DNA of 63,592 bases, filler included, from Licmophora abbreviata (GCA_900291995.1; 10 parts of 10 records of this genome joined end to end with filler, not necessarily neighbours in it), one strand, 5' to 3'. Shown: positions 8,004 to 47,877, counted from the first letter of the whole stretch. Made by a program: numbers and translations. The notes: generated from the letters alone by a model not told the origin.

Positions 8004-8103
8004 NNNNNNNNNNNNNNNNNNNNNNNNNNNNNNNNNNNNNNNNNNNNTTAATTAATTAANNNNNNNNNNNNNNNNNNNNNNNNNNNNNNNNNNNNNNNNN
8101 NNN
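8004..8103. other. Artificial scaffold spacer
   Basis: N44-TTAATTAATTAA-N44; stops in all six frames. Confidence 0.97.
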
Positions 8104-11100
8104 GTGCTTCTTCGACTTGGGCCTTGGCTTTCGCACTGAAGGACTCTCCAACCCATTGTCCAAGATCGACAACTTGTTCCTGTGATGATGATGACGCCGT
8201 AGTCCTTGATGACTTGTCATTCGAGTAGAGCGCTCGCGTAAGAAGTAGATCAGGCAAACCACCACTGTAGTGTCGATAGTCAAACATCAGAGCGCGGAAC
8301 ATCGCCGCAAGCTGCACACCCCCGAATCCAGCGGCAAGCATAGATAAAGTTCGGACCTGCTGGAGATCATTCATAAGCGAAGCGTGTTCGGTCTTCTGTG
8401 TCCCGGCGAGTTCCAAGCGCCGAATAATCGTATCATGCACAAGATCGCTTATTGCTTGGCTGTCCAATAGCTCAAGCTTTCGAAGGTATGCATCAGTCTT
8501 GTCTCGTCTTCGTACGTAAAAACCCCGCATCTTAAACGAGCTTTCAATGTTGTCGACGGACGGCTTCGAGACTGGGGCTGTCCAGAATCCAACATGTAAA
8601 TCGTGCGGTGCCCCTTGATACGGAGTTAGAAAGATTGTTCGATGTTCAAGTTCGTCGCGCGAAGTTGCAGGCTCCTCGCCACAACCCGAGTCCATCCCGA
8701 AAACAGCTTCAGCGCAAATGATGCGAAAAAGCGCACGAATGTGGCCTCCTTCGTCATGCCATCCCTGCCAGCCACCACCTGCGGTGAGCTTGTTGCACGG
8801 AGCTTCGGCCGACGGGAGTCTGCCTGTGCCGTAGAATTCCATGGCGAGCTCCTCGACGTTCAGAGACGACGTCTGGACAATGTCAGTCTCTCTGTCCTCA
8901 AAACCGACAAAGCTACAGCGTCGTCCTACAAGTTGCTCGTCTGTGCCCATAGCGTTTGCGATTGCAGTGTCAGTTGTCGGTGACCAATCCGAATAGCCTT
9001 TTCTGGCCGGATTTCTTTCGTCCTGTCTAGATGTATTCCCAAGACGCAGACTGAGCTCGTCTCGCTCTGGGCACTGCGTTCCCTTCATGGCATCGGCGAG
9101 CGGAGTTCTCGTTCGTCGGACTAGAGATCGCAAAGCAGAAAAAGGCACAACAGCAGTGCACGCGAGGTGAGGAATGAGATCCGAACACATGCTGGCGACG
9201 ACTGACTGCGGCGTCAGTCTCTGCTGACCCTGCGACCGCTTCGAAGACTCCTTTTGTCTTGCTTCCTCAACAGCGTCAACCTTGACTTGCCGTCGCAACA
9301 AATGAGTGTAGTCAATCACCAGGCGCTCGAAAAGCTTTCCCCTTGTTCGCCGCGAGACCAGAAGCTCCCCGAGTGAGAAGCCCCGTTCACATCTCGTTGT
9401 ATTCATCCAAACGGCAGCTGAAGGACTACCAAGACTTTGAGTCGAGAGTAGTTTTTCAAGTGGCAACGAGCCAAATAATATGGACTCAATGGCACTTGCA
9501 GCGAGGCCGTATAACCCGGTACGTTCCAGGACGGCTATCGAGTCCCAAAGGGCATACGTTAAGACTGCATCCCACCACAAATGCCGTAGCCATGGTCTTG
9601 AAGACAAATGACTCAGCTCGTCGCTCGCAACGGACTTCCACCGCGTAAGTAGAATTTTGATGATAATAATTGAGATCACACAAACGATTCTTTCGCAGTC
9701 AGAGAGACTGGAGGACAGAGTGTCAGGTGCGTCCTGTTCGAGAGCCAATATTGCATGCTCGACAGCCTTGTGTGACGAGTTTACTAGTAAAACACTTCTT
9801 TGTGTTTGATGCGCACTGCGTATTTCGTCGCTTGGTCCTGCGAGTAGCCTCGAGATCAATACTCTCCTTCCGGAGGGGGACAACAATTCAAGAAAATCTA
9901 CGTCTACACCAACCTCGTCGTCGCTCAAATCAACTTGGATTTGGTCTATTTGAGACTTGCCCGAAGGCGCGTTTTCGTGCACTTCGTTCTCACTGTCTTT
10001 TTCCCCTCTGAGCCTTCTGCGCTCTTGATAACGCATCATATCATTAAGCTCGATGAGATAGTCTACCTGAGCTCTTAGCTCAACGGCCGCTTCCCATGAC
10101 TTGAAAGCAGCGACAGACAGAAACACTTGTTCCATCGAGTCTGTCGATATAACAGTGGCGTCGGGCGATAGGTCACGCGTCTCTCTTTCATTTAATGAAG
10201 CTCCTTCCGTACAGGCAATGAAGGAGTAGCAGTTAAGAAATGAACACTTGGCCAGTCCGAATCGATGTGACATGGCTGGGTACGACGCCTGGTGAAACGT
10301 ATGAGCCCCCGGTGGTCGTACAACATTGAAAAGGGGAATATCAAGATCGGAAGAGTGTACGTTTATGTCAAGGAGACTTTTCCATCCGTTTGTACCGTCG
10401 CCTCGCATGTCACCAGGTCCATGCGTAGCACAGAGGTAGAGACGCGCTGCACGGCGCAAAGCAAATAGCGGATTCTCTCGGAGCCTAAAACATAGTGCAT
10501 TTGGCACTGCGCTTCTTCCCCGACCATCGATCAGACTTGGTATGGATTTTTGAATGATCCGCTTCACGTCCGATACACACTCTCGAAGGAGGCGCGCGGG
10601 TATAAAGTCGACAGTACTACACTTCATGACAATACAACGAGCGAGCTTGTCGAACAGCTCAGCATCGACGTGCCGGCGAACAGGAAGGAGTGACGTACTT
10701 CTTCTTGAGCCGCCATGAGCCGCCAACCCGTACAACATGGTCTTCTGTTGACGCATGTGTTTCCATATCGTATTCTCAACCGGACGCATACTCCATCGAT
10801 CACCACTTGTAGAGTTGTTGTCTCCGTGTCGCCGCTGCTTCTGTTTATCCTTGCACCCTAGCTTCGCCAGAATGCAACGGCGCTCTTCTGCAGTTAGAAT
10901 GACGCCAGAGCCCTCTCGCGTTACCGCTCCTACCGTCTTTCCGCATTCCTCCTCGCTATGGAAGGATCGAATCAGCCCCAGGGTACGAAGGCGGTCGATG
11001 TCATCGAAGAGATCATCGACGGCCGCCAAATGTAGGCGAAGACTCTCTTCGTCAATGACATCTTCTCTCGTGCGACCTGAATTGCCCCCCGATGACTTTC

Positions 11101-12535
11101 CTGAGTAACTAAACTTCGTCTGTTTGGATATCTGAAAGATGTTGGACTGCTTCTCCGACACAACCTCGGTTGATAGGGATTTATTCTCTGCACTTTCACA
11201 GTCTTGATTGTCGCTACTATCGTCTGGACTCTCTTTTAGCTTTGGAGCGTAATATCGGTTGTAAACATCATCCAGACGGTACCAGGGCCCCTTGCGATAG
11301 TAAACACGGCAAAACAAATGTATTGCTCGATCGTCAGACTCCTTCTCCGTATCGTCGATTCGAGCGTCAGGCTCTGCCTCCGCATTGCCGACTGCTTTCG
11401 TTTCGGCGCTTTCCGATGAGCCGTCAGCGACCGCCCCCACACCTTCAGATATTGGTGATTTCAATTCATCATTTCGACTCTTCTTTTTCTCCCGGCATAA
11501 AAGGCAAGCACAACAAGCGCGCCGCTTGGGAGGATAACTTTTGATAGGCGGACGATTAAACAGCCGACTCAATATGTAAATGGCACTCATGTCGTCGCCT
11601 CGCTCCCAAGCCAACAATCGTTTCTGCGACGTGCCTCCCACCCTCCATCGTCTGTCATGCAGCAGAGTGTAACAAATCTCGGCCAGATTCTGAACATAGG
11701 CTGAAGATCGATAGGAATAAGAGGTAGGAGGCAGGAGCGAAACATTAGCAATAGGTTCCGAGGGGGCGTTGCCTCTGGCAGTATCAGTGCGAGGATCGTC
11801 ATTAGTCTCGTCGACGGAGTCCGATTCAAACGCGGCAGAGCAGGCGGGGCCTTGCGATTCAGAGTCAATTAATTCGGATTGAGTCGCTGTCTCTTCTCTC
11901 AGAATTGCAGATTGTCTTGCATTCTGCGTTTTTATATAACTCTGTGCACTCGCGCTTGTTGCTTCAGAATTGGTGACTGACGACCGAACGGCGGTATCCG
12001 AGTTGGAAGTAGGTCCCTGTCCCGAACTCGAACCAAACTCGGCATCGCTCCCGAGAAGAGGTTCGTTTTGTCTTGTCCGCTTTGGGGTCGGTGGCATGAT
12101 GGTAAGCAAAACTACCACGTCATCTTCGCTATTAGTTTCGGTGGCACCATCATCACTGTCGTTCCTAATGTCGTTTTCATGATGAAGGGCAAGACGTAGT
12201 GATTCATTCTCACTTGACGATTTGCGTTTCTTTTCAGAAGTCTGCGGGGAACCTGACTGAGATGAGAAATTAGGATGAGCATTCACCCCTATTCGCTGAT
12301 GTCGTCGCCTTGGTGTCAATGCAAAGTCAATGGTATCCAATTCGACAATGTCCGTGGTCTGTGTGGACGCCCACTGTACGAGTCCCTCGTCGGCGTTCAA
12401 AAGATAGGCGGCGTGCTGCGTTTTCCCTTGTCTGACCCACACCAGGGGCGGACTTGATAATGATGATGCGGACTTTGAGGGGGTACCTGCTGGTGGTGGC
12501 GGACTTGCAGAGGGAGACGACGATGATGATGCCAT
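8104..12535 (-). CDS. FAN1: Fanconi-associated nuclease 1-like protein with VRR-NUC domain (3'-partial at spacer)
   Basis: Long ORF with NVEELAMEFY..GWQGWHDEGGHIRALF, FLTPYQGAPHDL and DYRHYSGGLPDLLL (PD of the PD-(D/E)xK site), plus RRTRGKLFERLVID. Likely start MASSSSSP at 12535. Confidence 0.85.
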
Positions 12536-13316: not shown

Positions 13317-14882
13317 CTAGCTTGATCGTGCGGCAGCACCTCCACGAGTCACGTTCCCTTCCCGTATCGCCACATCAGTATGTAAGAACTTAGCTGCTTC
13401 CGCCGATGCCTTCACTTTGACTGCACTACGTTCCAGCATCTCCTCCTCGTACTGCTCAAGAGCATCGCGCACATCACCCTCCTCCACGCGGCGAATCAAG
13501 GTACGGGCAAGTGACAATGCATCCAATAGAGCTTGGTTCGCTCCCTGACCCTTGAACGGACTCATTGGATGTGCCGCGTCGCCTAGCAAAGTGACCCGTT
13601 GCTTGTCCGTGTCAGAAAGAATGTCTCGAGTCAGGATCGATCGGTCGTACACTGGATACCCAGAAATAAGGGACTCCGAAGTACCAGACAAGAGTTCTGG
13701 GACGGGACTGTGCCACGCGCCACACTTGATCAGTGCTTCTCGTTTCAGACTCGACGCGCCCTGTCGGCTCAACTCTTCCGCATCGCCTTCCGGCATGGGA
13801 AAGCTGAGCTGCCACATGTAATGAGACGGCGAGTACGGCATTGCATAGAGCCGTGTAGTTCCGTCTGCGGTCTGAAAGACAGTTTCGCCGTCAAGTAGGG
13901 CCGAATCCGACGGAATATCAGCCCTTGGGCAGATGCCCAACGCGACAATGCAACCTAGATAGCGCAACGGAGTCGTTTCTTCGCCCACTAGAATCCGCCT
14001 CACCGTACTTCGAATACCGTCGGCTCCGACAAGAACTTCGGCGCGTCTTTTGAGCTCCTTCGATCCTTGCCGCAACGTTAGCTCTACCCCATTGTCATCT
14101 TCTTCGTAGTCCAGCAGCTGACAATCCCATTCCAACTCATCGTCTCCGCCCAAAGCGTCCAGCAGCTCCCGGCGAAGCGATTGCCTTGCAATATGAATGT
14201 TTTGCCGTTTGTTTTTACTATCCGAGTTTCCATTTGTCTTTTGCGACGCTCCCCATTTTCGTAGTCCCCATTCGCCCACCACAGTTCCGTCCGGAGTGTG
14301 CACGACATGTTTCGTGGAGGTAATACCTTCGCCCGCCAGGTCCACCGAGATTCCAAAGGAACGGAGCGCTTTGGAGGCTTGTTGCATTGTCAGACCGTAG
14401 CCTTGACGGCGTTGGGAGAATGAATGATCTCGCTCGTACACTGTGAAAGGAATGGAGCGATGACGACAGGCAATTGCGAGCGCCAGTCCGCCTAGCCCCC
14501 CTCCGACAATTGCCACGTGAGGCAAGTTCAGTGTCTTCGTCTTTGCACCGTTTGCTGACTCTACTGCGTCCCTCGAAACAAGGCCGCTCAACTGACAGCG
14601 CGAGCACGATTCAATACGATAGGGTGCAGGCGATTCTTCTTGGCCTTCCGTACGAGCTCGCTTGTGTCGAAGACGGGCCTTCTGGGAGGGAGGCCTCCGC
14701 AGCTTTCCTTCTCCTCGGCACTTGGGACAGGCAGTCAGAGATAGACTGGCATGCCGAGTCGCCATTTTCAGAAGAAGTCTGTTTGGAACGAAAGACCGTC
14801 GAATAGCAAACGACTGAGAATTCCTAGTCAAAAGCAGCGACACGATTCCGATCATTCCAGGAAACCAGGCTCTCTTGCTCAT
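13317..14882 (-). CDS. FAD-dependent monooxygenase (group A, salicylate hydroxylase/zeaxanthin epoxidase-like) with probable plastid presequence and N-terminal CxxCxGxG-type motifs
   Basis: GGGLGG, GADGIRSTVR, GDAAHPMSPFKGQGANQALLDA. Signal peptide ending SQS-F followed by an Arg/Ser-rich transit-like stretch; CPKCRGEG and CSRCQLSG. Confidence 0.9.
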   Translation of the reverse strand: MSKRAWFPGMIGIVSLLLTRNSQSFAIRRSFVPNRLLLKMATRHASLSLTACPKCRGEGKLRRPPSQKARLRHKRARTEGQEESPAPYRIESCSRCQLSGLVSRDAVESANGAKTKTLNLPHVAIVGGGLGGLALAIACRHRSIPFTVYERDHSFSQRRQGYGLTMQQASKALRSFGISVDLAGEGITSTKHVVHTPDGTVVGEWGLRKWGASQKTNGNSDSKNKRQNIHIARQSLRRELLDALGGDDELEWDCQLLDYEEDDNGVELTLRQGSKELKRRAEVLVGADGIRSTVRRILVGEETTPLRYLGCIVALGICPRADIPSDSALLDGETVFQTADGTTRLYAMPYSPSHYMWQLSFPMPEGDAEELSRQGASSLKREALIKCGAWHSPVPELLSGTSESLISGYPVYDRSILTRDILSDTDKQRVTLLGDAAHPMSPFKGQGANQALLDALSLARTLIRRVEEGDVRDALEQYEEEMLERSAVKVKASAEAAKFLHTDVAIREGNVTRGGAAARSS

Positions 14883-15265
14883 TTACTTGCTCTCCGCACA
14901 CCCCGTCCGTACTTGTTGGCCGCAGAGCGCTCCCGGTCTTGACCTGCACGTATCAAGGATGACAATTCGGCGTCGTCTGGAAAGTGGATGTACCGAATCG
15001 TTGGTCCGCGAATGTGTAGCAGACTGATGCTCTTGACAGGATCCGCGTCGCCGGTTGTGCGGCGGGGTAATGGCACAACTCTTTCCGCTCCTTCGAGAAC
15101 TAGATTCATGTACTCGTCAGCCGAGGACAGAATTCCTTTGTACAAACGCCCGGTTTTCAGTTCAACCGTCACTTCAAGGCCTTCAAAATACCGCAGCAGG
15201 GAAGATAAGCTCCTTTGTGGACCACGTTGTGCTTTCGCTTTGTTGCTAGACGCCATGGTCGACAT
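14879..15265 (-). CDS. LSM10: Sm-like protein, LSM10-like (U7 snRNP-type subunit)
   Basis: Sm1 SLSSLLRYFEGLEVTVELKTG..GILSSADEYMNLVL and Sm2 LHIRGPTIRYIHFPDD. The SLxxLL helix and RYxHxPDD end resemble LSM10 more than SmD1/SmD3/Lsm2/Lsm4. The Sm fold is secure; the subtype is inferred. Confidence 0.7.
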   Translation of the reverse strand: MSTMASSNKAKAQRGPQRSLSSLLRYFEGLEVTVELKTGRLYKGILSSADEYMNLVLEGAERVVPLPRRTTGDADPVKSISLLHIRGPTIRYIHFPDDAELSSLIRAGQDRERSAANKYGRGVRRASK

Positions 15266-15650
15266 CAGTGTGATATGTGAGATGCGATTATGTCCGGCAC
15301 CGTGCGGCGCCGCGACCGGGACCTCGTCAAGGCGCAGGTCGACCTCGTAAAACTAAGCTCACATTTTGGAGATTAAACTCCGCTTGAAGGAGAGGTGCAA
15401 AGCGATGCATGACTATGTGTATCGGAGCTTGGTTGGGGAAATATTATATGGCGTGGAGTTGTAGGCCCTCCACATAGCGTCTCCAAGATGTGAGAGTCTC
15501 ACCACTGGTTGCACCTCCGTCGAATGCAGACCCGCCTCGATCACTCCGAGTAACACGGGACAAGACAGCAACAACCCACAAACTTGCGTTTGCCCTTCGT
15601 TGTCGTTACGAATGGTAGTTCTATCGATATCCAATCTAAAATTTGTCGCC

Positions 15651-16334
15651 ATGGTGTCCAAGTTGCGCCGAAAGAAGCCTCACCCCATCACCAACATTAC
15701 CGTAGTTTCGACGAGGGCCGTTAAGTCGACCAATAGCAAGATTACACCGAACACGAGCGACGATAGCAACAGGAGCACGGGCAGGAGCAAACCCGCCAAA
15801 CTGGAGAGTCCCATCAAACCCTTTGACGTCAACAGGCTCCCTACGATAGCCCCCGATAAGCGAATCTACAACGACGATGATATCCTAGAAGTGCCATACT
15901 CCTTCAGTTGCTTTCGTCTCTGCGTTCCGGCTACCATTTCCGTCGTGGACACCCTAGATGACAACACCTCCGAGCTCAGTTGTGAGTTGATTCCTGATCG
16001 CGTTCCCACTCCTTGTCCCAAGAATGAACGCAAAACACTTAAGACTCTTGCGAGACGCAAAGTCGTACCTGTTGACCCCTGCGACTGGCCGAGCGACGAG
16101 GAAGAAAGTGTCGTCTCAACGGGAAGTCCGTTTGATGGGAGCCCTCAAACTTTCCAGTCTCGTCTACGACTAGTAGATGACACCATGAGTGGAGCTTGGC
16201 CATGCTCAGCGAGGCGAGAGACGTCCAATGGAAGAGAACATCCAATGAGGGAAATGCTATGCCATACGATTGCCACGCGCGACGACCTGGATACTGAGTT
16301 CTTGGATCTCACCAATGCATCGCCGCGAGACTAG
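15651..16334 (+). CDS. Hypothetical protein (about 227 aa)
   Basis: ORF from gccATGg at 15651, divergent from the LSM gene; no recognisable domain. Confidence 0.5.
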   Translation: MVSKLRRKKPHPITNITVVSTRAVKSTNSKITPNTSDDSNRSTGRSKPAKLESPIKPFDVNRLPTIAPDKRIYNDDDILEVPYSFSCFRLCVPATISVVDTLDDNTSELSCELIPDRVPTPCPKNERKTLKTLARRKVVPVDPCDWPSDEEESVVSTGSPFDGSPQTFQSRLRLVDDTMSGAWPCSARRETSNGREHPMREMLCHTIATRDDLDTEFLDLTNASPRD

Positions 16335-16587: not shown

Positions 16588-18238
16588 TTAAAGTTCCATG
16601 TCGACTCGCAGCTTCGGTTGAAAGCGTAGAAGGGGCGGTCGGACACCACCAAACTGAGCAATAACTTGGGGATCATCAGCGTCGTTGTGGACGCCTACGG
16701 TTACGCTGTTTCCGCCCAATTGATAGCCGGCAAAGCCTTGCAGACTCCCGAATCCGTCGGGACGAATCATCGCCACAACATCCAATCCCATATCTATCGA
16801 ACGCTGGGTCGGTTTCTTCTCCTTGCTCGTGACGCGGGTAACTTCCTTGGTTCGTTTCAGCTGCGCGGCTGGACTATCGGGGAAGGCCACGAGGGCGTCA
16901 TTGAGCATGGCGCTCATTTCCTGTGACGCCTTCGCTTTCGAAAGTCCCAACGACGGAACTTCCAAATCATCCATGACTTGATCAAAACGGTAAGCAGAAT
17001 TTCTCATGGCCGCCGCATTATCGCCCAACGCCGACTCTTCCGAGGAAGCCGATCCCATTTTCCGCAAGAGCTGCGCTTCAAACTTCTGCAGCATGGTCTT
17101 TTCCAAGTTGACTACCTGCGCCGCGAACAGCTCCCGAACAGCCGCTTCCACGAGAGCCTGCAGCTGGACTCGCAGCTCTAACCGATACTGGGCCACCAAC
17201 GGCAATCCAGCCGAGGACAGTGTCTCCGTATCATATCCCTGTACCAACGCTCGATCCATGAGCGCCGTCGCGTCGTTCCCGAAGCCATCCACGATCAATC
17301 CACGTGCAACGCGACTGCGCCATGCCGCTACCTTGGTTCTGATGGCACGCGCCTGTTTGGCATACGCCTGACGACACGTCAAGTAGGCCTGGGCCACGTG
17401 AGGAGGATCCAACGCATGGCCTATCACTCCGGCATCTCGAATTGAAGCTTGCGCGTTCGAAAGGCGCTGCGCCAGTGACGACGATCCGGCATCGGTCGAC
17501 TTGGCGGCGTCTGACGCGAGGAGAAGCGCCTATGAAACACGTTAACAATCTTGTTAGGTACTGAACGATTGAGTGGCTCAAATGATGTGTTGCCAGGCGT
17601 ATCGACATCGAAGGAAACAACGAACTTACCTGCCGAGCGTCGTCCGTTGTCGCCATTGACACAGACACAACTCTACACACATCTTCAAACTTGGGGTCGC
17701 TGCCAAACTCGGCAGCAGTAGCCTGGAAGATCTCCACTATTTCCGATGTCAGCTGCCGCTCTGTTGCAGCATCAACATAGCCCATGACTCCCAGCATAAT
17801 GGTGAGAGGCTGCACGGGGGAGCTGGCCAGACGCGCCCGGATAAGAGCCGTCAAGGTTCTAGCGTGTCGCGAGTTTCGTAAGCCCATTCCTACATCTCCT
17901 TCCGTTATCCCATCAATCACTACTGCATCTGCCGCCAGTGAAGTAGCAGCGAGTGAATTGCGTTCCGATGGCGACAAGGCGTGGTTCAGAGTGGCACCGC
18001 GACAGATCAGGTTGGCGGAAGCACCATCTTCACTATCTTGCAGAGACAAGACACTTTCGGACGATACTCCCAGAGGCGACATGGTCCCAGGACTGGAAAC
18101 GATGGCAACGATACCGTTGGGTGTCGGTACATCCGGAATTTGTCGATGCAGACTCCCTGACGAGTCCATCAAGACCGTATTGGCGGACGCGCCAAGCACC
18201 CACGCCGCAAAAAGCAGCACAGTGTTCTGTCGACCCAT
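16588..18238 (-). CDS. Signal-peptide protein, possibly a degenerate Sey1/RHD3-like helical protein (2 exons)
   Basis: Exon 1 18238-17630; intron 17629-17530 (GTAAGT..TAG); exon 2 17529-16588 in frame. N-terminal LLFAAWVLGASA; C-terminus AMIRPDGFGSLQGFAGYQLG..PLLRFQPKLRVDMEL looks conserved. Family call tentative. Confidence 0.7.
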
Positions 18239-19702: not shown

Positions 19703-20356
19703 ATGATGATCATATCAACCATTCTCCATTGGCTCCAGAGACCAGCTCAGGTGGCTCCGAGTGTGTGCACTGGCGTAATTTCACGTTCTCGCCAACAGAC
19801 TTCCGCTACTAGACGACACATAGCCACATCTTCTTCATGGTCGTCGCTTCAGAGCGACGAACGACCATCGTGGTCGGACGAATGGAAGAAGCTAGGACTG
19901 GGAGCACGCCTTGTGGACAACGAAACGCTCACGAATCTATTCTTTGTCGAAATGGGCTTTGGAGTCGATCAGCATGGATCTCAGGACGCCACCAAAGCTG
20001 CCGTCCGTGCTGTCCGTAACGCCATTGAATTCAATTCAATACCAGGAGTGATTGAGGCGATTCCCGGAGGACGACAGGGTATGCTGATTCAGCTTAAGCT
20101 GGGAGTCCCTCCGGACGAGCAGGGTCAGCCCAGGTCTCTCGATGTACTTGAGGTTGCCAAAGTGTTTCCGTACGGAAAATTGTTGCCAATACAGGTGGTT
20201 GTCGGCGGTCTCTCATTCCCAACAGGTCGGGTAGTGGAAGAACTCGGGGACTCCGACGACACGGCCATATGTGTAGCTGCTTCTGTGTCGATTGGCTACA
20301 ACGATGGATCCAGTAAAGATTCTCATGAAACTTACAACACAAAGGACGGTTACTAG
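19703..20356 (+). CDS. Lin0512-family protein with N-terminal targeting-like extension
   Basis: FVEMGFGVDQHGSQDATKAAVRAVRNAIEFNSIPG, KLGVP, FPYG, VVVGGL, AASVSIG match the Lin0512 family pattern; Arg/Ser-rich N-terminus. Confidence 0.85.
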   Translation: MMIISTILHWLQRPAQVAPSVCTGVISRSRQQTSATRRHIATSSSWSSLQSDERPSWSDEWKKLGLGARLVDNETLTNLFFVEMGFGVDQHGSQDATKAAVRAVRNAIEFNSIPGVIEAIPGGRQGMLIQLKLGVPPDEQGQPRSLDVLEVAKVFPYGKLLPIQVVVGGLSFPTGRVVEELGDSDDTAICVAASVSIGYNDGSSKDSHETYNTKDGY

Positions 20357-21277: not shown

Positions 21278-22441
21278 ATGTTGATAGAAAAGGAACGAGC
21301 CTTCTTCGAGGCGACGAAAAAGGGCAATTTGGAAGATGTTCAACGCCAGAAATCCAAGAATGGAATCAATGTCAACGCCGCGGACGACTGGGGCGTGACT
21401 CCCCTCTTTCTTGCCAGTGAACGTGGACACGCACAAGTTGTTGCGTTCTTATTGAAAAGGGGCGCAAACGTCGATGCGGTTCGGAAGAATGGAATGACGG
21501 CACTCTACATTGCCTGCTGGAATGGTCACGAGGAGGTCGTTTCGCTTCTATTGGACCGCAAGGCCAATATCACTCTCGCTGAAAACACACACAAACGCAC
21601 GCCTTTATACGCTGCCACGTCTCAGGGACACATCAATGTCGTTCGACTCTTACTACAAGGCGAAAAACGCCGAAAGCCCGACGTCAATGCCTCTGGGATG
21701 ACATTCGCATGGACGCCCTTGAAGATCGCCGCCTTGCAGGGACGACAGGATATGGTGGAGCTGCTCTTGGACAATGGTGCTGCCGTCGATCAACCCAGTA
21801 CGCATGGTCGCACGGCCTTGTGGAATGCGTGTGAGGCTGGACATGCTTCTGTCGCGCAGTTGCTCCTGGACCGGGGTGCGTCGATTGATCAAGGTGACAG
21901 TGAAGGACTCACACCACTCTATGCTGCCAGTCAAAATGGAAGGTTGGAAGTCGTTCGACTCTTACTGGATCGAGGTGTGACTGTCGATGCACTTACAAAG
22001 GTTCAGACGACACCCTTGTGGATTGCTAGTGACCAAGGACACGATGAGGTGGTGCGGATGCTCTTGGACTCGGGAGCGCAAGTTGCTAGTGTGAGGCGTA
22101 CCTTTGATAATTCCACGCCCCTTTGGGTTGCCAGTTGCAACGGGCATACCGAGGTAGTGCGTCTCTTGTTGGAGCTTGCTCCTGACAGTAGCGATCATAT
22201 TGGCGTCAATGTCGCCTTGCACAAGTGGAGAGGTGGGTCAACGCCGTTGTTGGTAGCCTCCAAGAATGGCCACGAGGAGGTTGTCAAGCTCTTATTGGAG
22301 CATGGGGCAGATAAGAACCTAGCGGGATCGTACTTGAGGAGCACGCCTTTGTCTGTGGCCAAGTACAACAAACACACTGCCATTGTAAGCTTGTTGGAGG
22401 CAACGACGACGACCGGTATCGCCGCACCACCGCAGCAGTAA
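21278..22441 (+). CDS. Ankyrin-repeat protein (about 11 repeats)
   Basis: Repeated TPL..A...GH..VV.LLL..GA units; likely start MLIEKE at 21278. Confidence 0.95.
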   Translation: MLIEKERAFFEATKKGNLEDVQRQKSKNGINVNAADDWGVTPLFLASERGHAQVVAFLLKRGANVDAVRKNGMTALYIACWNGHEEVVSLLLDRKANITLAENTHKRTPLYAATSQGHINVVRLLLQGEKRRKPDVNASGMTFAWTPLKIAALQGRQDMVELLLDNGAAVDQPSTHGRTALWNACEAGHASVAQLLLDRGASIDQGDSEGLTPLYAASQNGRLEVVRLLLDRGVTVDALTKVQTTPLWIASDQGHDEVVRMLLDSGAQVASVRRTFDNSTPLWVASCNGHTEVVRLLLELAPDSSDHIGVNVALHKWRGGSTPLLVASKNGHEEVVKLLLEHGADKNLAGSYLRSTPLSVAKYNKHTAIVSLLEATTTTGIAAPPQQ

Positions 22442-44729: not shown

Positions 44730-45003
44730 CCTTAGAAGACGATGAAAAGTGTGTCCATTGTAATAAAGTGCAAGAAGTTGTGAATATTGCGTAATGATGA
44801 CCTTTGCGAACAGGTCATAAAGTGTGATCGGAGCGACATGCTCGCTCATAAGTACATCATGACCAGAATGTCCTTTGGGCCTGTCAGGTCAGTAAATGAC
44901 CACATGGGGGTCATCTCGCCATGAAAAATGGGAAGTTCGGTCACTTTTTGGCAACAACACAATATACAGCAGTGTCTACCTCCTGTCAAATCACCGCCGC
45001 TCA

Positions 45004-47877
45004 ATGAAGCGAAACTCTGGCCATTCCACTCAATCTCGCAGGAGTCGACAGGAGGATGCATCCCCTCTGGATTGGGATCTAAGTGACAGCAGCCATAGTC
45101 TCGCGCTTTCCATGGTCTCAAGCGCCGACAGAGCTCTCGTCTCGCAGGGCAGGCGGGGCATTCACAGCTCTGGCGCCGGCTCCATCGTTTCCTTTGGGGA
45201 GAGATCCCTAGCTGCATCAACGACCGGTCGAACAAATCTGACCGACCCACAACTTGAGCGAGATTCAGAGAGGGCCAGGATTTCAGGGGAGACGCGTCCT
45301 TCGCTTGGACACCATGGCAGTCATCGATCACTTCCCTCGTCGTCACCATCGAGCAGGTCTCTGGTAAGCTACGAGGGATCCAGAGAGCTCGTATCACTCA
45401 GTTCAGTAGGTGATGACAACAGTCTAGCTGGTCAGAGTCTTGCGTATTCGAACTACTCGCTTGATGATCAATCCCGAACCAGCACCTACATCAGCGAAGC
45501 GAGCGTCGAAGAAGAAGTTGAACGGACGCACTTCCCGCAACAGTCGAACCCTGCTCATAGTCCATCTCTTTCGCGTGTCGAGCGACCGGTAGAGTATATC
45601 ATGCAAGAGGAGTACCATGATGACGACGTGAGCACGATCGGGGGCACATTCTTCAATGATGCGTCCAGTGTTTGGGACGCGTCGACGATTGCTACGACTC
45701 CGACGCTTCGACAAGAAATCGGTCCAGCTCTGCACGAACAAGACACCATCTATGAAGAGGAAGAAAGCGAAGAGGAAGAAGAGAGCGATGAGAATGAAGA
45801 GAGGTCGGCTGAGAGTTCAAAACGAAGCAAAGTGTCACAGCAATCATCACATCCTTCAGATCGCGGAATGGCGAGGGGTGCGCAAGGACACTCCATGTCG
45901 ACAGTCGGGATGGATTCTGCACGTGAGCAGGCCAGAAGTCATCGCCAAGGAAGGCGCCCATCTACTGGACAAGTCAGCGAGGCCTCAGCATCTCAGACTC
46001 AGGGAACCTTCAATGCAAGTATGTATGACCGACAGTCGGCAGATGATGCTATCTCTCTCGCCGGCAGTATTCGTTCTGCAGACTTTTCTGGGACCGGTGT
46101 TACAGACGAGGATGCATTCCGGTACCATGAGGAGGATGAAGACTACGACGATTATTATGATGCTGATAGCTACGCTGACCAGAGTCTGCCAGTCCTTTAC
46201 CCCGATGACAGCGCCTCGCTCGTGGGAGCACGATCAGTGGGAGGTGGGAGCTATGGTCGGCCTCCCAGAGCGCCGAAGACCTTTCCCTCATCGGCGTCCG
46301 TGTCCTGGTCCCGTTCTGGTTCCGAGCAAGCTGCAATGTCCCTCAGAGGAGCTCGCACGGTTCAGTCAGAGGTATTGTACCGCGGTGGGATGAGTGGGGT
46401 AGGATCGGTAGGCAGCGGGAGTGGAAGCGGTACAAGAAGCATTGGAGCTAGAACGGTGCAGTCGGATGGATATGTGTTACAACAGAGGAAACAGGACTTT
46501 CGAGAATTATATCAGCAGCAACGTCCTAGAGCTGCGCTTCCCACCACACCAGAAGTGCTCCAGTTTGGAGCCGATGGTCCAATGATGACCAAAGGTATGA
46601 GTGGGCGTGCGGTTGTTCACGTTGCCATGTCGTCAGCTACGGACGGGTCCATCCAAGACTTGGAGTATACTACGCCTCTCGTCGAAGACAATGAGATACG
46701 ATCTATTGGTTACGGTAACGGAAGTACAACTCTAGGATCCGGAAGGGAGCTTCCATGGTTCGAGTACTACGTGAAGCAGCACGGCTGGGTTGAGAAGTGC
46801 TATTCGCGACGGTGCTACCGAATCAACGCTCTCATACTTCTCTGCACAACGCTACTGATTTCAGTGATTGTTACATTGACAACCGTGTCCACTGGAAACT
46901 CACCAGTTCCGCATGAGGGACGGTCAGCGGCGGGTCTACTCAACGATCTCACGTCACCTGCTGCGCTAGATATCCCTATTCCGTCGCTTTTCGAACGTCA
47001 CGTTCATGATTGGTTGAGCAGCGACAATTTCAACGCTTTACAGCCCGAAGATGTCCCTTTCTTTTGGAATATTCCTCTGTCGTCGGCCAACCTTGTTCAG
47101 GAGAACTGGGGGGCTTGTCTCGGATTAACGCAGGCGTCAGGGGTTGGACGAATCCATGCCTCAAATGAAACTCTCAAGGTCATTCAGATTTTCGGTGCAA
47201 GTTATGTCAACGTCGACACAACCACGTCGGCGGGCATTGATCACGCTATAAAGATGGATTTGATGGGGTCTGGACTGGCGGATGTAATGTTTTCTCCGCT
47301 AGTAACGGAGGTTCTATCGAATCTCTACAGTCGTAGGGCGAAGGCTAAGCTCATCATTGTACTTCGACATCCCATCGACAGAGCAGTGGCGATGTACAGG
47401 TACCTCTCAACGGCCACATCGGACCCAAGGTATGACCCATCTATCGCATCGATGACGCTCGAGCAGTTCTCAGTCAGCAAGTACATCGACAATAACTATG
47501 TATGCCGAGTGTTGCTCAACAAGTTTAGCGGCGCTTTGAGTGAAGACGATCTCAATCAGGCAAAGGAAATTCTTAGAAGAAAAGCAGTTGTCGGCATATA
47601 CGATGACATGCTTCGGACAGTTCAACACATCGAACGCTACTTTGGCTGGCTGCCCTTCAACGCCGACGCCGCACATTGCCAGCGGAATTCGATCGAAGCG
47701 GGACTTGCCAAGCATGCGGTCCCCGTGGTTGATCCTGGTTCGGCCGCTTGGGAACTCATCAAGTCGCACAATCGATATGATCTTGCTCTCTATGAGTACG
47801 CCAGAAACGTCGTTTTCCCGTATCAACATGAAGTCATACGTCGCCAGTTTCAGAGTGTGAGCACGCCCGTAGCATGA
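45004..47877 (+). CDS. Type II membrane sulfotransferase-fold protein, paralog 3, with about 600-aa disordered N-terminus
   Basis: TM ALILLCTTLLISVIVTLTTV; PFFWNIPLSSAN, YVNVDTT, LRHPIDRAVAMYRYL, AKEILRRKAVVGI, NRYDLALYEYA. Confidence 0.87.
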   Translation: MKRNSGHSTQSRRSRQEDASPLDWDLSDSSHSLALSMVSSADRALVSQGRRGIHSSGAGSIVSFGERSLAASTTGRTNLTDPQLERDSERARISGETRPSLGHHGSHRSLPSSSPSSRSLVSYEGSRELVSLSSVGDDNSLAGQSLAYSNYSLDDQSRTSTYISEASVEEEVERTHFPQQSNPAHSPSLSRVERPVEYIMQEEYHDDDVSTIGGTFFNDASSVWDASTIATTPTLRQEIGPALHEQDTIYEEEESEEEEESDENEERSAESSKRSKVSQQSSHPSDRGMARGAQGHSMSTVGMDSAREQARSHRQGRRPSTGQVSEASASQTQGTFNASMYDRQSADDAISLAGSIRSADFSGTGVTDEDAFRYHEEDEDYDDYYDADSYADQSLPVLYPDDSASLVGARSVGGGSYGRPPRAPKTFPSSASVSWSRSGSEQAAMSLRGARTVQSEVLYRGGMSGVGSVGSGSGSGTRSIGARTVQSDGYVLQQRKQDFRELYQQQRPRAALPTTPEVLQFGADGPMMTKGMSGRAVVHVAMSSATDGSIQDLEYTTPLVEDNEIRSIGYGNGSTTLGSGRELPWFEYYVKQHGWVEKCYSRRCYRINALILLCTTLLISVIVTLTTVSTGNSPVPHEGRSAAGLLNDLTSPAALDIPIPSLFERHVHDWLSSDNFNALQPEDVPFFWNIPLSSANLVQENWGACLGLTQASGVGRIHASNETLKVIQIFGASYVNVDTTTSAGIDHAIKMDLMGSGLADVMFSPLVTEVLSNLYSRRAKAKLIIVLRHPIDRAVAMYRYLSTATSDPRYDPSIASMTLEQFSVSKYIDNNYVCRVLLNKFSGALSEDDLNQAKEILRRKAVVGIYDDMLRTVQHIERYFGWLPFNADAAHCQRNSIEAGLAKHAVPVVDPGSAAWELIKSHNRYDLALYEYARNVVFPYQHEVIRRQFQSVSTPVA

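Follow-up and report, generated by a model that had tools for sequence, protein, structure and literature searches.

The DNA considered here, a stretch of 63,592 nucleotides (nt) from the diatom Licmophora abbreviata (GCA_900291995.1) that is called the window throughout and from whose first letter all coordinates are counted, carries on its minus strand, at 13317-15265, two open reading frames (ORFs) that abut so closely that the stop codon of the first and the start codon of the second share a single ATGA. ORF1 encodes an Lsm10-like protein and ORF2 a flavin adenine dinucleotide (FAD)-dependent monooxygenase, and the question raised by the locus is whether both are read from one bicistronic mRNA and, if so, how ribosomes would reach ORF2. 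Comparison with related loci revealed two intact and conserved ORFs, a conserved tight tandem order and an avoidance of ATG triplets in ORF1. These features point to a bicistronic mRNA, which is probable when both modes of translation are taken together, and one read by scanning through ORF1 is, somewhat less firmly, the favoured form. The locus comprises the following elements:

15266-15611, between ORF1 and the divergent ORF at 15612-16334 (plus strand): presumed shared promoter region
15280-15276 and 15273-15269, minus strand: two initiator-like TCAHW motifs directly upstream of ORF1
15265-14879, minus strand: ORF1, Lsm10-like Sm-fold protein (128 aa, 387 nt, intronless here)
15265 or 15256, minus strand: optional ATG starts of ORF1, giving 128 aa (weak context, C at -3) or 125 aa (accATGg, strong context)
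15109, minus strand: the single internal in-frame ATG of ORF1 (T at -3)
14882-14879, minus strand: ATGA overlap, ORF1 TGA and first ORF2 ATG (T at -3, weak context)
14882-13317, minus strand: ORF2, FAD-dependent monooxygenase of class A type (521 aa, 1566 nt) with an N-terminal CxxC...CxxC module
14882-14766, minus strand: ORF2 presequence of 39 codons, holding the second in-frame ATG at 14855 (G at -3)
14765-14763, minus strand: third in-frame ATG of ORF2 (aaaATGg, strong context, A at -3 and G at +4), coding for a conserved Met before the CxxC motif

The 3' end of ORF1 reads GCA AGT AAA TGA, and the ATG at 14882-14880 shares letters with the TGA. An earlier, sequence-only reading of the window had reported this overlap, and it is confirmed by the ORF coordinates together with Pfam matches to LSM (PF01423, E 8.5e-14) in ORF1 and to FAD_binding_3 (E 1.9e-23) in ORF2, the junction lying inside a single gap-free contig (C3070). 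The position of the next in-frame Met at 14855, 23 nt past the ORF1 stop, is likewise correct. That reading overlooked the third of the in-frame ATGs preceding the conserved core, at 14765, which has the best context of the three and encodes the Met at which bacterial homologs and several annotated diatom models begin; the claim that the ORF2 start cannot move downstream consequently stands for the targeted isoform only. The further argument that the junction leaves no room for a promoter and terminator is a prokaryotic one and weaker than claimed for a eukaryote, where a promoter or poly(A) site may lie within the adjacent coding sequence. Two additional copies of the region (92-94% identity, many indels) are present in the assembly: C182, 94% identical and indel-rich, in which both ORFs are frameshifted and CTG stands in place of ATG, and C501, which holds the monooxygenase only. 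Both were taken as error-rich contigs or a decayed haplotype, and nothing was concluded from either.

Named homologs of the two genes come from Phaeodactylum, Epithemia, Seminavis, Mayamaea, Cylindrotheca, Fragilariopsis and Fragilaria, and a metagenome scan for Lsm10 loci yielded 12 (L005-L016). A same-strand monooxygenase follows Lsm10 in four of these: in L006, L007 and L009, from one species, after a spacer of 52 nt (L008 is a shorter piece of the same locus), and in the Phaeodactylum-type L011 after 31 nt, with a 126-nt intron in its Lsm10. L005 has an Lsm10 of 44% identity, the same upstream neighbour and an ATGA at the same distance from the C-terminal KY motif, which opens a 31-codon presequence-like frame running off the contig. 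The distances between the ORFs in the linked loci compared below are therefore -4 nt in the window, -4 nt in L005 (ORF2 unconfirmed), 31 nt in L011 and 52 nt in L006. Other genes, and no monooxygenase, lie downstream of Lsm10 in L010, L012, L015 and L016, and no monooxygenase start is found in the roughly 260-320 nt available downstream in L013 and L014.

In Epithemia the two genes bear adjacent locus tags (ACA910_020725 and ACA910_020726), with a contig of equal size for both. Equal-sized contigs for Lsm10 and monooxygenase proteins were observed in seven cases, compared with a mean of 0.76 (maximum 3) for offsets; the test covered 87 of the 127 listed Lsm10 proteins and 103 of the 120 listed monooxygenases, rows without a size, many short contigs and part of the bacterial tail being excluded. 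One of the seven is the Epithemia pair. Another (P0141/P0064) was set aside as probable chance, as the two proteins have different sources and no other same-strand frame of the extension upstream of P0064 encodes Lsm10. Upstream of the start of monooxygenase P0059, an Lsm10 C-terminus is present in another frame (score 55, against 31-39 in three shuffles; one of ten extensions tested). The two genes of Cylindrotheca fusiformis are on different scaffolds. Linked members are spread across several clades of both the Lsm10 and the monooxygenase trees, and this scatter suggests an old link, lost from or never present in the Cylindrotheca/Fragilariopsis group. The conservation of the pair in related diatoms, one of the checks named in the sequence-only reading, was thus borne out, the tandem order being kept at short spacing in L006 and L011 and as adjacent genes in Epithemia.

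How unusual such an abutting layout is was assessed with a census of 140 long ORFs taken over 470 kb of the assembly (the window included, and a few bacterial contigs among them). An upstream ORF ending -8 to +70 nt from the long ORF precedes 23 of them, five on bacterial-looking contigs; in the 17 other eukaryotic cases the upstream ORF has no Pfam match (13) or a partial match (four, read as first exons). A complete, separate, conserved gene abutting a long ORF is above chance. Among 14 Sm/Lsm paralogs in the genome, two of which stop at the edge of a contig, none is followed by a same-strand ORF of at least 150 aa within 300 nt of its stop, and spacing, rather than gene order, stands out as the distinctive feature of the pair.

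Another -4 overlap occurs in the window at 44846-45349 (minus strand), before an 895-aa ORF; the 167-aa ORF ahead of it lacks a Pfam match and contains eight out-of-frame ATGs, and the overlap is probably due to chance. Three loci of the assembly (L096, L100 and L101, on C980, C1060 and C1080) have a bacterial look, with dense ORFs and a transporter operon bearing its own ATGA overlap, so the assembly probably includes bacterial contamination. For the pair itself, a prokaryotic operon is excluded by the eukaryote-type Sm protein, the diatom orthologs and synteny with P. tricornutum chromosome 8; a scan for sigma-70 promoters and terminators gave background counts only, and is irrelevant to a eukaryote.

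The most informative property of ORF1 lies in the ATGs that it lacks. Out-of-frame ATGs in ORF1 plus spacer number zero in the window, L006 and L011 and two in L005, as compared with 6, 14, 10 and 11 in the unlinked relatives L010, L012, L013 and L014, respectively. The latter are AT-richer (GC content at third codon positions 0.21-0.32 in the three measured, versus 0.50-0.54 for linked loci), which confounds their high counts and makes internal controls fairer. The 14 Sm/Lsm genes of this genome contain 2-6 out-of-frame ATGs each (54 in 1531 codons), against which zero has a Poisson P of 0.011; Lsm1 and Lsm6 were not reconstructed for this control, and Lsm11, with 11 in 376 codons, was kept apart. 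Only one of 144 segments of 128 codons from the genome's own long ORFs is free of out-of-frame ATGs. At sites where T would create an ATG (Asp, Asn, His or Tyr codons before G, pooled over the four linked ORF1s), T was found in 2 of 16. The same base fills 40 of 77 such sites in the monooxygenases next to these ORFs (P=0.003), 26 of 59 where those codons precede a base other than G (P=0.018) and 25 of 50 where it would produce CTG, GTG or TTG instead (P=0.007). As the last two controls differ from the ATG-creating sites, the bias is one against ATG in particular, not a preference regarding CpG. The first 75 codons alone show it (2 of 12 sites, P=0.014), and it extends to codons 45-75, about 170-270 nt upstream of ORF2. 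Selection against ATG so far upstream implies that ribosomes bound for ORF2 would scan most of ORF1, which favours leaky scanning. This start-codon avoidance is the best new evidence for a bicistronic reading. Counts of ATG-prone dipeptides and Met on the Lsm10 tree, which is weakly resolved, were left unused.

Additional evidence comes from Phaeodactylum tricornutum. L011 is the orthologous locus of Phatr3_J45936 (XP_002180103, B7FZ78), whose model span of 2199 bp corresponds to L011 219-2417. The 598-aa model, listed also in supplement rows of PMC5859163, fuses Lsm10 exon 1 to the monooxygenase core and omits both the conserved Lsm10 C-terminus and the monooxygenase presequence; its Phatr2 name marks it as an fgenesh prediction with expressed sequence tag extension. 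Whereas J45936 is annotated as one fused protein scored 'other localisation', two ORFs are found here, the second with a presequence. The Lsm10 proteins of P. tricornutum comprise an unspliced 172-aa read-through (P0232) together with spliced forms of 130 and 87 aa, and the coexistence of the two kinds indicates that the protein caller does not splice, so that the spliced forms would derive from intronless, RNA-derived contigs. The longest contig of a spliced Lsm10 measures 3012-3136 nt in five of six forms and 1600 nt in one, and L011 without its intron is 3169 nt, holding a convergent gene besides Lsm10 and the monooxygenase. Contigs of about 3 kb that bear spliced Lsm10 thus fit continuous RNA through the junction. 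A flag on J45936, 'intron retention in 16 conditions', was given no weight, since the model predicts another intron, within the monooxygenase, that would raise it equally. At L011:1305-1341 the monooxygenase is frameshifted, possibly a heterozygous broken allele, and the public model passes over this stretch as an intron; a 351-aa downstream piece (P0253) is found on 17 contigs, and intact forms of 504 and 549 aa also exist.

In the mechanism proposed here, one capped mRNA would begin just upstream of the Lsm10-like ORF and continue through the monooxygenase, which would thereby use the Lsm10 promoter. The majority of ribosomes would translate Lsm10, and some would scan past the ORF1 start, meeting no out-of-frame AUG and one weak in-frame AUG on the way. 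Initiation at 14882 or 14855 would yield an organelle-targeted monooxygenase and initiation at 14765 possibly a short form, so that the message would give two separate proteins, probably unrelated in function. The ATGA overlap would be the extreme of a short spacer and not a required signal, since two linked species do without it, L010 and L012 have it by chance and it finds no pairing partner in the 18S. Folding of the junctions, compared by eye, gave no shared structure.

Several points weigh against this reading. The single mRNA, which the tandem order, the ATG avoidance and the 3-kb contigs suggest but do not establish, has no spanning read or transcript behind it; the contig sizes say nothing of the direction of extension, short-read contigs also merge overlapping monocistronic RNAs, and one spliced Lsm10 form (P0419) carries 77 extra upstream residues. 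Adjacency alone proves little in a region whose other genes are microsyntenic as well. Linked loci do not all keep the exact overlap, and an ATGA at the Lsm10 stop also occurs in two of the six relatives without an adjoining monooxygenase (L010 and L012, opening ORFs of 6 and 11 aa), so that the overlap alone is weak evidence. As to the ATG avoidance, besides the base composition of the unlinked relatives, single-gene codon shuffles gave only P=0.04, 0.07 and 0.36-0.55, the sites are few and in part homologous, the test was devised after zero had been seen in the window, and both exceptions fall in L005, where linkage to ORF2 is unconfirmed. In L006 there is an internal ATG that is in frame and strong in context. 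The chief obstacle is that the aligned ORF1 start has a strong context in four of four linked loci (purine at -3, G at +4). A short leader could permit leaky scanning (PMC11291117).

Of the alternatives, the one with most weight, unlikely but far from negligible, is a pair of overlapping monocistronic transcripts: the monooxygenase transcription start site would lie inside the Lsm10 coding sequence, and the Lsm10 mRNA would end in, or read untranslated through, that of the monooxygenase. The ATG avoidance would then only keep the 5' leader of the monooxygenase clean, the strong ORF1 start and a compact, microsyntenic genome would be as expected (the mean intergenic length in Phatr3 is 307 bp), and continuous short-read coverage is predicted equally well; in Cryptosporidium, internal monocistrons are described alongside polycistrons (PMC11761812). 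The reach of the avoidance to codons 45-75 would, on the other hand, require the internal start to lie near the 5' end of ORF1. Initiator-like motifs, moreover, are found 9-58 nt upstream of ORF1 in four of four loci and within 80 nt of ORF2 in one of four, and in the window neither of the first two ORF2 ATGs has a TCAHW motif in the 150 nt upstream, although the motif occurs in 67.9% of 80-nt flanks in P. tricornutum and is hence a weak indicator (PMC4686930). A bicistronic mRNA translated by termination-reinitiation, with ribosomes leaving Lsm10 restarting at the overlapping or nearby AUG, is judged improbable. A strong ORF1 context suits such a model (PMC11892635), yeast can be induced to reinitiate on bicistronic RNA (PMC11952965), and the ATGA stands at the same position in two of four linked loci; yet the other two have gaps of 31 and 52 nt, and reinitiation needs no ATG avoidance far from the stop. 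The parallel drawn in the sequence-only reading with ATGA overlaps in translational coupling and viral reinitiation is weakened by the same gaps and by the lack of a viral-type 18S pairing site: the genome's own 18S contains no TCCCA, and its complementarity to the 90 nt preceding the stop extends over 8-9 nt at most, which is background.

The remaining two alternatives carry little probability. One spliced gene giving an Lsm10-monooxygenase fusion protein, as in J45936, is very unlikely: both domains are present in the public model and GT-AG pairs that keep the frame can be drawn on paper for the window (11 listed), but that model is an fgenesh prediction that drops parts of both proteins, in the proteins from intronless contigs the 126-nt intron has been removed and Lsm10 terminates at its own stop codon, and an LSM domain is found in none of the 120 listed monooxygenase representatives (286-912 aa searched). 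Least probable of all is a deletion or collapse in the assembly that joined the ORFs. Fragmentation into 7734 contigs, the indel-rich second copies and the CTG for ATG in C182 would allow it, whereas neither ORF is broken or truncated, order and junction recur in the second copy barring indels, and relatives share the layout.

The name Lsm10 for ORF1 rests on exclusion and context. A search of the genome for LSM gave 20 matches, the others being read as SmB, D1, D2, two D3, E, F, G, Lsm1-8 and Lsm11; except for Lsm11, these names were assigned by eye from motifs. ORF1 is thus an Sm-fold protein beyond the canonical SmB/D1/D2/D3/E/F/G and Lsm1-8 set, whose genes lie elsewhere. Its ESM Atlas neighbours include LSm10 clusters at ranks 2 and 3 (0.93 and 0.92), whereas a PDB profile search places Lsm4 (3e-13), Lsm2 and SmD1 above Lsm10 (4.6e-7). 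Lsm11 is encoded in the same genome on C176 (L050:1342-2469, minus strand; 376 aa, PDB E 1.5e-9), and C1726 (L059) encodes the RNA-binding domain of SLBP. Compared at the protein level, ORF1 resembles Lsm10 from the U7 snRNP (small nuclear ribonucleoprotein; PDB 6v4x_C) in its Sm fold and in the co-occurrence of Lsm11 and SLBP, and differs in that Lsm4, Lsm2 and SmD1 come ahead in the profile search; it is best read as Lsm10. An Lsm10-like protein, Lsm11 and SLBP would represent the protein parts of a U7-type pathway of histone mRNA 3'-end formation in a diatom. LSM10/11 have already been reported in stramenopiles, diatoms being unnamed in the accessible part of that preprint (bioRxiv 10.64898/2026.10.14.759114). 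The two SmD3-like genes, named by eye, are L048 (C5259) and L052 (C1434), the former divergent with a long Gly/Arg-rich tail. EukProt assigns two Lsm10-family proteins of diatom-like type (P0266 and P0432) to the foraminifer Nonionella stella; they perhaps derive from diatom RNA in that data set. No Lsm10 was present among the Seminavis proteins looked up.

ORF2 belongs to the class A flavoprotein monooxygenases. Its similarity to solved single-component monooxygenases is distant (best E 2.6e-22), so no substrate can be named. Many bacterial relatives are 51-56% identical, and bacterial homologs begin a little ahead of the CxxC motif. A fast tree puts every named bacterium in a single clade (Shimodaira-Hasegawa support 98), and as the tree is unrooted no direction of transfer is claimed. 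The presequence has a hydrophobic stretch followed by Phe, is Arg/Ser-rich and contains no acidic residues. A similarly hydrophobic, acid-poor N-terminus is found in 14 of 30 homologs with an extension of at least 40 residues, which makes it a family trait of the eukaryotic members, and the N-terminus is predicted to be an organelle presequence, plastid or mitochondrial; the ATG at 14765 is the possible start of a short, untargeted isoform. The Seminavis ortholog is annotated as zeaxanthin epoxidase (ZEP). In the accessible part of bioRxiv 10.1101/2020.01.06.896316 the known diatom ZEPs (ZEP1-3) group without further members, and J45936 appears as a ZEP-related candidate with snRNP among its Gene Ontology (GO) terms. 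A main-text search for the P. tricornutum accessions of this locus gave nothing beyond one passing mention.

Eukaryotes with documented native bicistronic mRNAs from nuclear genes include green algae, red algae, some fungi and Cryptosporidium (PMC7896298, PMC11761812). The locus resembles the green-algal ones in a short ORF1 for a small complex subunit before a longer, unrelated ORF2 (387 and 1566 nt here; green-algal medians are 291-357 and 1113-1185 nt, PMC11291117), in a near-zero spacer (0 nt in several Auxenochlorella loci; PMC11892635), and in ATG depletion before ORF2 (small numbers here; no ATGs before ORF2 in the green-algal loci as described in the accessible text of PMC11291117) and colinearity across species (PMC11291117, PMC7896298). 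One Auxenochlorella locus includes an LSM-domain ORF bearing U7 GO terms, but as ORF2 and with another partner (PMC11892635). The ORF1 Kozak-like context of green-algal loci tends, as a statistical trend, to be weak, whereas here it is strong in four of four and only the extra ATG at 15265 is weak. Green-algal loci are chlorophyte; the present one is from a diatom, and its bicistronic mRNA is predicted. It appears to work most like the green-algal bicistronic loci and is a candidate member of that class, whose defining single mRNA is probable here.

Cryptosporidium belongs to the stramenopile-alveolate-rhizarian (SAR) group. The polycistrons of Cryptosporidium parvum are similar in their compact eukaryotic genome, two same-strand ORFs without trans-splicing and possible internal monocistrons, and differ in having been shown by long reads and in lineage and genes (PMC11761812). 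The pair also invites comparison with viruses. Viral termination upstream ribosome-binding sites (TURBS) direct termination-reinitiation at AUGA or UAAUG overlaps through an upstream motif that pairs with 18S helix 26. The likeness is a stop/start overlap (two of four linked loci, also two of six unlinked by chance); here, unlike there, the overlap is unconserved and no 18S complement exceeds background. Scans of viral contigs and prokaryote genomes gave no useful loci, with two archaeal Sm-like matches. A search of the literature, mostly without subscription papers, found no native bicistronic mRNA in diatoms or stramenopiles, the diatom reports consulted concerning engineered constructs only; the arrangement is thus of a known kind in a lineage without a report of a native case in the literature searched. 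It is present in the model species P. tricornutum, where bicistronic reading is directly testable. If correct, the reading would amend a public gene model that fuses two genes, reveal a hidden organelle-targeted enzyme, point to further such loci among fused diatom gene models and make a native spacer available where two genes are to be expressed together in diatoms. A bolder version is tentative and rather doubtful: an obligatory Lsm10-monooxygenase bicistronic mRNA across many raphid pennate diatoms, the first native one in stramenopiles, in which a bacterial-type enzyme would be made only via the Lsm10 message, ribosomes would pass the strong start by, for instance, a very short leader, three AUGs would set organelle versus cytosolic enzyme, and fused models would hide further loci.

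The genes flanking the pair in the window are as follows:

8048-12535, minus strand: VRR-NUC gene (FAN1-like)
16588-18238, minus strand: RHD3/Sey1-like gene
21278-22441, plus strand: ankyrin gene

The locus on P. tricornutum chromosome 8 has RHD3-like, VRR-NUC and ankyrin genes nearby as in the window, those with VRR-NUC, RHD3/Sey1-like and ankyrin domains lying within about 30 kb of J45936. The divergent ORF upstream of Lsm10 (15612-16334, plus strand) encodes a Ser-rich protein of 240 aa with no Pfam match, and a divergent ORF is found at the same place in L005 (weak similarity, E 0.025) and L006. Between the RHD3/Sey1-like and ankyrin genes, at 19703-20356 (plus strand), lies a gene for a Lin0512-family protein (PF09585, E 7e-29) with an N-terminal extension that resembles a targeting peptide.

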